Shown here piece after piece: positions 9,001 through 12,000 of a stretch of 64,000 nt of DNA. The stretch is from Candidatus Falkowbacteria bacterium. Its GTDB lineage: Bacteria > Patescibacteriota > Patescibacteriia > XYB2-FULL-38-15. Positions within the stretch are counted from its first letter, which is position 1. Each line of letters starts with the position of its first letter. Where the stretch lies: the NCBI GenBank assembly GCA_016214745.1, contig JACRNW010000008.1:14512-78511 (forward strand), read 5' to 3'. The position numbers were made by a program.

Positions 9001-12000
9001 AATGTCGTTCATTTTGTGAATATAACAAGGCGGTTCATTTTCTAAAAGCAGCGTCACGCCCTCTTTTTGTGCTTCGCTTAAAGCAAATTCAAAAAGATGA
9101 TCAGAAGCAAAAGAATATTTTGTTGAGGGCGTTCTAAGAGAAGAAAATATTCTAATGTACTGCGTGCCAAGAGCTTTAGCAACTTCTATCGCTTTGGCGA
9201 TATAGTTTTTTTTCTCGACAAGGCTTAAATGAGGATTAAATCCGAATGTATCAACTTTTTTTGATGATTCTTCTGTAGCGTTTTCTGAGTACCATTTGAA
9301 TAAGGGGGAAGCAAACGCCGAAACTGAGATGCCATTACGTGATAAAAGTTCACGGATACTTTTGATTTCATCCAATGAATAATTGATCAAGTTTTTATTA
9401 TATATTGTCCTCAACTCGACATACTTTATTTTGTGCAGTTTAAAAAATTCGATCGCCTCATTTAGATCATCACTAATTTCATCATTGATCGTTGTAATTC
9501 GCAGTTTATTTTCCATACCTTGAATTAATTGTTTTTTGTAAAAGACGGCGAACTTCCTCGACCTTTCCTTCCGACACCACTTTGCCCGTCCACAATCTAA
9601 AAGCTTTTATCCCCTGATAAATCATCATGTAAATTCCCGGACAAGTTTTTGCGCCATATTGTTTTGCAAGTTTCAGAAATTCTGTTTCAAACGGATTAAA
9701 TACTGCGTCAAAAAATCCCAGATTCTTGATCCTGGATCTACCGATGCTATCAAAATGACTTTTGTAAATGAGGGAAGCGCCGGTTTTGGGATACATACCA
9801 ACGGGCGTTGCGTTGATAACAAAATCGGCTTCTCTGATTGCGGAGACGATATTTCGGTCTGTGAGAGATTTGGTTTCTATTCTGGAACCGCACTTTATAA
9901 AATCTTTTTTAAGTTTTTCTGCTTGATTAAAATCCGAAGGCCTGTTTAACACAGTCAAATGAGAAACTTGCGGAAGGCTCCCAATAATGGCTCGAGCGGC
10001 ACCACCGGCACCGAACACTACTACTCTATCAGCACTCTTAAGGGGTCTTAATTTAGTTTCTACCGCCTTGATCGCTCCGTGGCCGTCGGTATTGTAACCG
10101 ATAAGTTTCCCCTTTTTATTTACAATCGTATTTACGGCTCCAATCCTCTGCACTGTTTTATCAATTATATCCAAATATTTTATGGCTTTTTCTTTGTAGG
10201 GAAGAGTTATATTCGCACCCATAAATCCAAAAACGGCTATTGCTTTCATTGTAATTTTTAGATTTTCGAGATCGGCTTTAGAAATTTTAATCTTGAGATG
10301 ATTGTAATTTTCAATTCCCGTTAGTTTGGCAAAATATCGAAACATAAAATCGGAAACACTGTGCTCTACGGGGTCCCCAATCAAACATGTAACAAATTGG
10401 CTACGAGACTGTTGTTTCGACATTTTATATTATTTAAAAATTTAGGAGATCTAACCGTCAACGATCTCTCCGAATATTTTAACACAAAACGCGGCAACCT
10501 TCAAGGATACCGCGTCGTCGTCTTTTTGGTTACTCTATTCTACTTTCAACTGCTTATCATAAGTCTTTCTCTCTCCGAATTCCGCCTGCTTTCCGTCGTT
10601 CCATTGGCTTATCGGCCGAAGATAGCCGACAACGCGGGAATAAATTTCACACGCCTGCCGTTTTGTTTGTTTTTCCTCCGTCATATATTTTAATTTAATT
10701 CTTAATTTTTCAATTTTTAATCATGATAACCGATTTCTTCATCGCACTTCGGACAAAACGGGTGCTCACCGGCGAGATATCCGTGTTTCGGACAAACACT
10801 GAAAGTCGGAGTCAGGGAAAAATAAGGCAGATGGAATTGACTGGCGATTTTTTTAACAAGTAATTTTGCCGCCTCGCCGGAAGGCAATCTCTCTCCGATA
10901 AATCCGTGGAGCACCGTACCTCCAGTATACCTCGTCTGGAGATCGTCTTGCAAGCGCAAGGCTTCAAAATAATCATTAGTATAACCAACCGGCAAATGAG
11001 TAGAATTTGTGTAGTAAGGAACAGCTCCTTTTTCTCGATGAGCTTTTTCATTGGCGACAATGATATCGGGATATTTTGCCTTATCTTTTTTCACTAAACT
11101 ATAACTCGTGCCTTCGCCGGGAGTTGCTTCAAGATTATAGAGATTATTTGTTTCAAGCTGGTAGTCCATCAGTCTTTCTCTCATAAAATCAAGAACCGAT
11201 TTGGCAAAATCATGGCCTTCCGTCGTGGTAATATTTCTACCCAAGAAATTCAAACAAGCCTCGTTCATGCCAATCAAACCGATGGTATTAAAATGATTTC
11301 TCCAATATTCATTAAATCTTTCTTTTATCGGCGTGAGGTAATGGCGGCAATAAGGATAAAGCCCCTTGCCGGTTAGGGTTTCTACAACTTCTCTTTTGAT
11401 TTCAAGGCTCTTTTTGGCCAAATCCATAAGCCGGCCCAGACGATCAAAAAATTCTTGCCTGGTTTTTGAAAGATAACCGATGCGCGGCATATTGATGGTC
11501 ACGACGCCGATTGAACCGGTTAAAGGATTCGCGGCAAAAAGTCCGCCGCCGCGTTTTCTTAGTTCGCGGTTATCAAGGCGCAAACGGCAACACATTGACC
11601 TCGCGTCCTCGGCTTTCATATCGGAATTTACAAAATTGGCAAAATAAGGAATCCCGTATTTAGCCGTCATTTCCCAAATCGGATCAAACTCTTTCTTTTC
11701 CCAATTAAAATCCGGGGTAACATTATAAGTCGGAATCGGGAAAGAAAAAACTCTGCCTTTTGCATCACCGGCAATCATTACTTCGGCGAAAGCCTGATTG
11801 AACATATCCATTTCCGTCTGGAACTCTCCGTATTTTTCTTTTTGCGGCACTCCGCCGATGAGCACTGCTTCCTCGGCCATATTCTTTGGCGCCGCGAGAT
11901 CCATCGTAACATTAGTAAATGGTGTCTGAAAACCAACGCGAGTCGGAACGTTAACATTAAAAACAAATTCTTGCATGGCTTGCTTCACGTCTTTGTACGA

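Follow-up and report, generated by a model that had tools for sequence, protein, structure and literature searches.

Ribonucleotide reductases (RNRs) of class III are viewed in the literature as enzymes with a single catalytic chain that carries its own glycyl radical, and RNRdb describes them as an alpha2 enzyme with the radical glycine in alpha (PMC2795772). In the NrdD protein of P. copri the glycyl-radical domain is a mobile unit in which a zinc site is combined with a glycine loop that lies buried and a tail at the surface (PMC11226230). Glycyl-radical proteins that act as spare parts are, according to a 2026 review, known only for formate lyases (PMC13450708); one of them, GrcA (YfiD), binds pyruvate formate-lyase (PFL) that oxygen has cleaved, is itself switched on by the PFL activase and gives the enzyme its activity back (PMC8683613). 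Here the class III RNR locus of a Candidatus Falkowbacteria bacterium was examined in a 64,000-nucleotide stretch of its genome (GCA_016214745.1, contig JACRNW010000008.1, positions 14,512 to 78,511; hereafter the window). In this locus the nrdD gene stops short of the glycyl-radical loop, and the loop is encoded by a short open reading frame (ORF) of its own. The window probably encodes a naturally split class III RNR, i.e., a heteromer of a 676-residue large subunit and a 49-residue glycyl-radical peptide.

The split nrdD locus

The elements of the locus, in window coordinates, are as follows.

10717-12747, minus strand: nrdD, the large subunit gene (676 residues plus TAA), with an ATP-cone, a 10-stranded barrel and a zinc ribbon, and without the glycyl-radical loop
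12451-12720, minus strand: ATP-cone domain, residues 10-99 of the large subunit (PF03477, E = 1e-21)
11587-11592, minus strand: Cys386-Cys387 within SMCCRLRL, both invariant in alignments A2 and A3
10744-10794, minus strand: zinc-ribbon motif C652-P-K-H655...C665-P-K-C668, which stays on the large subunit and aligns to CEDGH...CPVC of T. maritima NrdD
10720-10743, minus strand: post-ribbon tail DEEIGYHD (the DEEIGY part at 10726-10743)
10685-10716, minus strand: AT-rich spacer that parts nrdD from the small gene (32 nucleotides, 3 of them G or C)
10535-10684, minus strand: small subunit gene (49 residues plus TAG), whose product comprises the glycyl-radical loop and the C-terminal tail of NrdD
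10649-10651, minus strand: Cys12 of the small ORF, eight residues before the glycine (Gly-8)
10625-10627, minus strand: Gly20 codon, for the glycine in SRVVG*Y that is predicted to bear the radical, invariant and aligned to RIVGY of T. maritima NrdD
10481-10524, minus strand: stable hairpin followed by UUUUGUGUU (-21 kcal/mol, z = -3.05), starting about 10 nucleotides past the stop codon of the small ORF
2364-3071, minus strand: nrdG, the radical S-adenosylmethionine (SAM) activase of class III RNR (235 residues), parted from nrdD and the small ORF by an apparent insertion of about 7.4 kb

The large ORF ends in ...CPKHGYLAGEHPFCPKCDEEIGYHD followed by TAA (over a longer stretch, ...SVCPKHGYLAGEHPFCPKCDEEIGYHD, then TAA), and an RxxG[YFW] motif is absent from all 676 residues. 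The small ORF lies in a different frame, has an ATG as its sole possible start codon and encodes MTEEKQTKRQACEIYSRVVGYLRPISQWNDGKQAEFGERKTYDKQLKVE, a product of about 5.7 kDa. Twelve of its residues (E13, S16, R17, V19, G20, Y21, P24, W28, N29, K32, E35 and R39) are invariant in an alignment of 64 stand-alone homologues. Tryptic peptides that would report on the split locus are QACEIYSR and VVGYLRPISQWNDGK.

The small ORF is not a chance reading frame, since its significant match to the NrdD family directly abuts that of the large ORF. In Pfam PF13597 (NRDD), residues 127-670 of the large ORF correspond to profile positions 1-529 of 562 (E = 9e-181), and the small ORF corresponds to positions 531-562 (E = 4e-10). 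NCBIfam NF006126 is divided in a similar way, with the large ORF at positions 2-650 of 684 (1032 bits; cutoff 548) and the small ORF at positions 648-683, and so is the T. maritima NrdD structure (PDB 4COI), of which residues 99-611 align with the large ORF and residues 613-646 with the small one. The large ORF also scored 535 bits against TIGR02487 (cutoff 326). All 64 small proteins tested matched PF13597 only (E <= 0.01), and the PFL-type Gly_radical family was not among their matches.

The barrel polypeptide of the window therefore matches the barrel models of the NrdD family and carries the zinc ribbon, and RVxG[YFW] is missing from it. A first-pass annotation of this DNA had reported an nrdD ORF that ends after its Cys-rich ribbon without a glycine motif, followed across a 32-nucleotide AT-rich gap by an ORF in another frame with the NrdD glycyl-radical signature. 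The layout and the profile matches agree with that description, apart from the length of the small product, which is 49 rather than 50 residues. The same annotation had assigned the glycyl-radical domain to the separate ORF; this holds for the loop and the C-terminal tail, but the zinc-ribbon part of the domain remains on the large ORF. C652, C665 and C668 of that part are invariant in alignments A2 and A3, and a structural zinc ribbon is predicted.

Because Cys386 and Cys387 are invariant and fit the double-cysteine finger-loop lineage exemplified by T. maritima NrdD (PMC9669993), they are, by homology, the candidate finger loop that would receive the radical. The window NrdG scored 225 bits against TIGR02495 (NrdG2; cutoff 131) and contains Radical_SAM and Fer4_12 domains.

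Conservation of the split among relatives

Stand-alone relatives of the small ORF are numerous. By word-indexed searching, 102 protein clusters were retrieved, each of 41-82 residues. A profile built from 64 of them (alignment A1) was run with HMMER exhaustively against 1.84 billion cluster representatives and gave 5102 matches at E <= 1e-3; among the best 150, 149 were 48-115 residues long and the remaining one was a full-length NrdD. When 249 short homologues were inspected, 238 began with Met and 245 contained the strict motif S[RK]xxG[YFW], with close variants of it in the other four.

The genomic setting is also conserved. The order truncated nrdD-small ORF-nrdG was found in L001, a 567-kb Patescibacteria-like contig with 84% DNA identity to the window across ftsA-ftsZ-nrdD, in an Aenigmarchaeota archaeon (L003) and in two further lineages (L004 and L006), with gaps of 32, 37, 82 and 8 nucleotides, respectively, between nrdD and the small ORF. 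The NrdG of the window is 78% identical to the product of the nrdG that directly follows the small ORF in L001. The 3' ends of the 80 reference-genome loci most similar to the window NrdD were classified by script: 56 were split, 21 were fused and three could not be assigned (two run off the contig, and L035 has a masked N-run just past the start of the small ORF). The split loci came from Patescibacteria (Falkowbacteria, Uhrbacteria, Buchananbacteria, Parcubacteria and Saccharibacteria), from DPANN archaea (Aenigmatarchaeota and Micrarchaeota) and from Orenia metallireducens, and the fused loci from Smithella/Syntrophaceae, Nitrospirae, Omnitrophota and one unclassified bacterium. The glycine motif was absent from 113 of the 120 nearest protein clusters in a collection of 5.8 billion proteins, and present in seven. 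In 60 of 63 related split loci nrdG adjoins the pair, which in the window it does not, being 7.4 kb away. The truncated large subunits are 63-93% identical in amino acid sequence across the clade, and all barrel motifs are invariant.

The two forms differ around the point of the split. In split large subunits the CPxC of the ribbon is typically followed by DEE[IM]GY and then by 2-40 variable residues, with few deviations (DTDLGI, DAEIGY), and the small ORFs have 8-11 additional N-terminal residues, including a conserved Met, relative to the fused form. Fused relatives have a compact linker of 2-4 residues after the ribbon (CPxC-x2-4-CEVYSR), e.g., CPTCAEACEVYSRVVGY.

The first-pass annotation had offered a sequencing error, or a recent frameshift or pseudogenization, as alternatives to a genuine two-subunit arrangement. 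The ORFs of the window are indeed adjacent, in different frames and only 32 nucleotides apart, and a single window leaves room for an indel. However, more than 60 independent assemblies, produced in different projects and with different technologies, show the same split. The spacers of the split loci range from about -1 to 285 nucleotides and place the small ORF in all three relative frames, and an ATG-started small ORF is present in 56 of 56 cases. The spacers are not homologous: those of the window and L001 are both 32 nucleotides long and differ in sequence, and that of L007, whose NrdD is 93% identical to the window protein, has 207 nucleotides. With an extra tail on the large ORF and an extra N terminus on the small one, no single indel would restore the compact fused linker. 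Finally, the ratio of nonsynonymous to synonymous substitution rates (dN/dS) of the small ORF was 0.07 against L001, 0.04 against L007 and 0.00-0.07 over all calculable close pairs, comparisons in which synonymous sites were often saturated; the small ORF is under strong purifying selection. That one true ORF has been broken by an error or by a fresh frameshift or nonsense mutation, or that the locus is a new pseudogene, thus has a vanishingly small probability, and the genuine two-subunit arrangement is borne out. Continuous orthologs in an identical nucleotide context had been named as the observation that would speak against it; the closest orthologs, L001 (84% nucleotide identity) and L007 (93% amino acid identity), are split as well.

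A cultured organism shows the same division in another gene order. Orenia metallireducens MSL40 has a truncated nrdD (677 residues), then nrdG, then a small ORF of 47 residues, which is preceded by AAGGAGGTGA and has a strong Shine-Dalgarno sequence upstream. RefSeq lists small proteins of 47-48 residues for O. metallireducens and O. marismortui (WP_143786648.1 and WP_018247994.1), named as the full enzyme.

The two ORFs could in principle be joined at the level of RNA or translation, by a group I or group II intron, programmed frameshifting, bypassing or stop readthrough. There is a precedent for repair at the RNA level, as the nrdD (sunY) gene of phage T4 is interrupted by a self-splicing group I intron. 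Against this, with its 32 nucleotides the spacer of the window falls far below the length of an intron, the spacers vary so freely in length and relative frame that no single recoding signal fits, and in Orenia a whole nrdG gene lies between the parts. Each of the small ORFs starts at an ATG of its own, and some of them are preceded by a strong Shine-Dalgarno sequence. Rfam searches returned no intron or other RNA family at positions 10300-11000 of the window at E <= 1, and none in the eight relatives with the longest spacers (130-285 nucleotides). Joining of this kind is therefore extremely unlikely. Frameshift, pseudogene, sequencing error, recoding and splicing were all rejected on the combined grounds of the spacers, the selection on the small ORF, the Orenia gene order and the Rfam results. 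A split intein was also considered and set aside, since the 8 residues after the ribbon and the approximately 11 before the core of the small ORF are too short for intein halves, although no intein-specific search was made. Some of the longer spacers (L007:5026-5232, L009 and L010) contain GC-rich, hairpin-forming stretches in an AT-rich context, without a match in Rfam.

The small ORF of the window has no obvious ribosome-binding site, as had been pointed out in the first-pass annotation. This is correct but uninformative: a Shine-Dalgarno-like motif precedes only five of the 47 long ORFs in the window, most of which have AT-rich leaders, and the source organism apparently starts translation largely without Shine-Dalgarno pairing. 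In relatives from lineages that use Shine-Dalgarno sequences, good motifs precede the small ORF. A scan for consensus promoters found none in or before the spacer that could serve the small ORF, and its co-transcription with nrdD is assumed.

The history of the split was followed in a neighbor-joining tree of large subunits, in which the finer placements are poorly supported. All split sequences and nine fused ones formed a single clade with 100% bootstrap support, as opposed to the Smithella-type fused group. Eight fused sequences were nested in the Patescibacteria part of this clade (80% support), and the outgroups of that part (DPANN and Orenia) are split. One nested fused protein, L016 (P0278), reads CPKCDEDD-MSPQKLERQKCEVYSRVVGY and so retains a small subunit's N-terminal segment together with its Met. 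This relic of a former small-subunit start (DEDD-MSPQKLERQKC) is the signature of a re-fusion. Fission and fusion have therefore both occurred within the clade, which argues that split and fused enzymes can stand in for each other functionally. That bacteria, archaea and a Firmicute all have the split implies that the whole cassette was passed on horizontally.

Several variants were seen among the relatives. A Cys pair (CxC, CC or CxxC) is found at the C terminus of 22 of 255 small subunits (about 9%), e.g., in L012, L023, L033, L046, L049, L055 and L064 and in P0027, P0073, P0108 and P0137; the small ORF of the window has none. These pairs recall the cysteines that act as a redox shuttle at the C terminus of class I and class II RNRs. 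At the radical site RVVGW replaces RVVGY, along with LTPV for LRPV, in a whole subclade of small subunits, and Orenia has RVVGF (variants seen in L027, L028, L030, L034, L036, L038, L041 and relatives, and in L077). The NrdD ORFs at L003:2006-4963 and in the viral loci L102, L118, L135, L139 and L142 have 985-1035 residues, about 300 more than usual, which suggests an insertion such as an intein. Many records (L009, L011, L015, L021, L022, L024 and others) carry ‘binchicken’ TPA titles that read ‘uncultured Gammaproteobacteria bacterium’, yet their NrdD groups with that of Patescibacteria; the titles look like placeholders or wrong taxonomy.

A proposed heteromer and possible reasons for the split

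As judged from comparison of the loci, the two genes are shown to be independently initiated frames that are co-inherited and under strong purifying selection in Patescibacteria, DPANN and Orenia. In the proposed enzyme the 49-residue peptide would bind the large subunit non-covalently, and its glycine loop would enter the barrel in trans at the site taken by the covalent loop in canonical NrdD. Gly20 would then sit at the tip of the loop, inside the barrel and beside the Cys386-Cys387 finger loop. NrdG would abstract a hydrogen atom from Gly20 to give the glycyl radical, which would in turn generate a thiyl radical on the finger loop, and catalysis would proceed from there as in single-chain NrdD. 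That such a module could act in trans is made plausible by the mobile glycyl-radical domain of P. copri NrdD (PMC11226230) and by GrcA/YfiD, which serves PFL in this manner (PMC8683613). The cassette is read as the working enzyme because a conserved nrdD-small ORF-nrdG operon in small genomes is most simply interpreted in this way.

Two features of the split proteins, the DEE[IM]GY of the large subunits and the Cys at Gly-8 of the small ones, may be adaptations of the interface between the subunits. Cys at Gly-8 occurs in 90% of stand-alone small subunits and is often replaced in the compact fused relatives. An inter-subunit zinc site involving Cys12 was considered, but in T. maritima NrdD, whose C...H...CxxC ribbon is the same, Val takes the place of this Cys, so Cys12 is probably not a zinc ligand.

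Some points weigh against the proposal of a heteromer. Production of the peptide, its binding and its carriage of the radical are inferred from the sequence and the known class III mechanism. AlphaFold2 modeling of the window proteins as one concatenated chain gave a reasonable barrel, with a mean predicted local distance difference test (pLDDT) score of 75.8 and low confidence at residues 400-408, which limits what it says on the placing of Cys386 and Cys387 at the loop tip. However, the small-subunit segment (residues 674-725), which was covered by seven alignment rows, had pLDDT below 50, and the model does not support docking of the loop. With so few sequences covering the segment, its low score would not be evidence against docking either. 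In addition, the part of the genome beyond the 64-kb window could carry a second, full-length nrdD, and a neutral fission maintained by tight binding of the loop would look identical in sequence data to a split kept for a function in repair of the enzyme.

Modules of the same type were found in viruses, apart from any large subunit. Scanning viral contigs with the small-subunit profile gave 80 loci (L087-L166), of which 64 are stand-alone ORFs of 41-147 residues with the glycine motif, 11 are full-length NrdD and five are truncated at the end of a contig. For some 60 of the stand-alone ORFs neither a large subunit nor an activase was detected within ±3.5 kb (tblastn with five diverse NrdDs and an NrdG); a large subunit could lie farther away on the same contig. 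The modules fall into two size classes, one with the loop only (45-70 residues) and one with a zinc ribbon and the loop (110-147 residues; CHDC...CxxC...CEVYSRVVGY). Among the viral contigs concerned are IMGVR_UViG_3300033145_001383 and IMGVR_UViG_3300025000_000005. Examples are given below with their neighbors.

L107, 3501-3641: orphan module with a large terminase gene directly downstream
L100, 3501-3623: orphan module near genes for tail and tail-fibre-assembly proteins
L127, 3258-3659: orphan module near genes for a Mu-F-like protein and a P22-type coat protein
L141, 3201-3641: orphan module near a tail lysozyme gene
L169 (KP703175.1), 25525-25959, minus strand: orphan module of the ANME-1 virus ANMV-1 (144 residues), consisting only of a zinc ribbon (CHDC...CPKC) and a CEMYSRIVGY loop

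The 144-residue coding sequence of ANMV-1 is annotated as ‘anaerobic ribonucleoside triphosphate reductase’ and is labelled simply ‘nrdD’ in the genome paper (PMC4372165). The 38.5-kb ANMV-1 record has no large nrdD or nrdG annotated, and when five diverse NrdDs and an NrdG were used as tblastn queries against the whole record, neither gene was detected at E <= 1. The orphan viral modules look like NrdD-type counterparts of GrcA and of T4 Y06I, and their occurrence suggests that the glycyl-radical module may be exchangeable between sources.

These modules bear on a different interpretation of the window, in which the small ORF is a GrcA-like spare part for a full-length NrdD encoded elsewhere and the truncated large gene is decaying or regulatory. 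Autonomous glycyl-radical proteins do exist for PFL (GrcA/YfiD), the phage modules of NrdD type have no large subunit detected in their vicinity, and only 64 kb of the source genome are visible. However, the truncated large subunit is itself highly conserved, as described above, and its barrel motifs are invariant; the large subunit always adjoins the small ORF and nearly always nrdG, in genomes that are small and for which the operon is most simply the working enzyme; and the 64-kb window contains no second NrdD-like sequence. A spare-part role for the small ORF of the window is accordingly improbable.

If the heteromer is accepted, the question of why the enzyme is split follows. Glycyl-radical enzymes lose their activity to oxygen, which cuts the polypeptide at the glycine that holds the radical (PMC3019208, PMC12288474). 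Since cleavage occurs at the glycine, only the 5.7-kDa peptide would be lost, and it is possible, as a tentative proposal, that the 49-residue peptide is a cheap, consumable and exchangeable radical cartridge with which the 77-kDa body is re-armed, rather than made anew, after oxygen cleavage at Gly20, and that viruses supply modules of their own to boost or rescue deoxynucleoside triphosphate synthesis by the host. NrdG might also find a free, flexible peptide easier to act on than a loop whose exit from the barrel has to come first. The orphan phage modules fit the speculative idea of a cartridge.

The alternative is that the split is a selectively neutral fission, tolerated through tight binding between loop and barrel and without benefit to repair, activation or regulation. 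Fused and split forms interconvert within the clade, and one re-fused gene retains the old start codon region, which is consistent with nearly equivalent states. On the other hand, the split state prevails (113 of the 120 nearest clusters) and has been kept over divergences at which synonymous sites are saturated, the shared, typical DEE[IM]GY and the 90% frequency of Cys at Gly-8 suggest adaptation of an interface, and orphan copies of the module in phages are hard to explain without a separate utility. None of these points is decisive, and a neutral origin and maintenance of the split is about as plausible as the cartridge, a minority prospect in either case.

Expression of the heteromer may be tuned downstream of the small ORF. 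The hairpin at 10481-10524 looks like an intrinsic terminator or an attenuator, although a simple terminator scan did not list it. It lies in a stretch homologous to L001, where it is found between the small ORF and nrdG, and it may determine how abundant reductase transcripts are relative to those of the activase.

The segment that follows the hairpin in the window has no counterpart in L001, in which nrdG is the next gene downstream of the small ORF; it has the look of an insertion by which the nrd operon was divided. It and a further feature of the window are listed here.

3082-10476: apparent insertion of about 7.4 kb between the small ORF and nrdG
3139-5010, within the insertion: fusion of a glycosyltransferase family 2 (GT2) domain and an F420-ligase-like domain
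4991-5515, within the insertion: HD-domain protein
6455-7693, within the insertion: archaeal-type SAM synthetase
7702-9516, within the insertion: xylose-isomerase-like TIM barrel fused to a GFO/IDH/MocA oxidoreductase
9506-10423, within the insertion: shikimate-dehydrogenase-like protein
18050-26893, minus strand: giant single ORF of 2947 residues, in an organism with a small genome

Comparison with known systems

No description of a split NrdD was found by full-text searches within an open-access library or in RNR family analyses, and specialists may have noticed it before. A two-gene class III RNR with a separate radical peptide is a real and apparently undescribed architecture. With it the subunits of the enzyme have to be defined anew for much of the tree (Patescibacteria, DPANN archaea and some Firmicutes), where automated annotation now names both pieces as the full enzyme. 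The split is also a natural system in which access of the activase to a buried glycine, installation of the radical off the enzyme and repair after oxygen damage can be studied: the small peptide can be isotope-labelled, mutated and titrated apart from the barrel, and both O. metallireducens and O. marismortui have been cultured. If the viral modules act on host enzymes, they would be the first glycyl-radical spare parts that do not belong to the formate lyases, extending that concept beyond PFL, and would represent a novel type of viral auxiliary metabolic gene, a new strategy by which viruses would manipulate the nucleotide supply in anoxic habitats.

RNR genes interrupted in DNA are familiar from phages. 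The NrdA of Aeromonas phage Aeh1 is encoded by genes in pieces, split by the homing endonuclease gene mobE, and this gene and the nrdD of T4 both give a working enzyme, as is proposed for the split nrdD. In those two cases the mobile elements are still present, whereas the window has a 32-nucleotide spacer with neither an endonuclease gene nor an intron. The split of nrdD is ancient and vertically maintained.

The class II enzyme NrdJa/NrdJb of Pseudomonas aeruginosa is a parallel in gene organization, since its RNR catalytic chain is likewise distributed over two adjacent genes, with a C-terminal module (a zinc finger and a Cys pair) on the second chain (PMC9669993). It differs in being B12-dependent, in the position of the split and in its second chain, which is large and folded and has no radical site. 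The beta and gamma subunits of benzylsuccinate synthase resemble the small ORF product in being described as small polypeptides that bind a glycyl-radical enzyme and influence formation of its radical (PMC12590467). Unlike the small ORF product, they are iron-sulfur-containing accessories, are not homologous to the glycine loop and carry no radical.

GrcA/YfiD and T4 Y06I are each a small stand-alone glycyl-radical end, and GrcA acts in trans in the barrel of its partner (PMC8683613, PMC13450708). However, GrcA belongs to the PFL family, has 127 residues and supplements a full-length PFL only after oxygen cleavage, whereas the small protein of the split RNR belongs to the NRDD family and has a partner without a loop. 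As the partner large subunit never has its own loop, the small protein would be obligatory.

The split enzyme is close to canonical NrdD (E. coli, phage T4, T. maritima 4COI/4U3E and P. copri 8P23), with which it shares the ATP-cone, the NRDD barrel, the zinc ribbon, the RVVGY loop and an NrdG2-type activase, and the chemistry is presumably the same. The difference lies in how the loop is attached: in every characterized case the glycine loop of NrdD is the C terminus of the same chain, whereas in the split enzyme it is a separate product of 49 residues.

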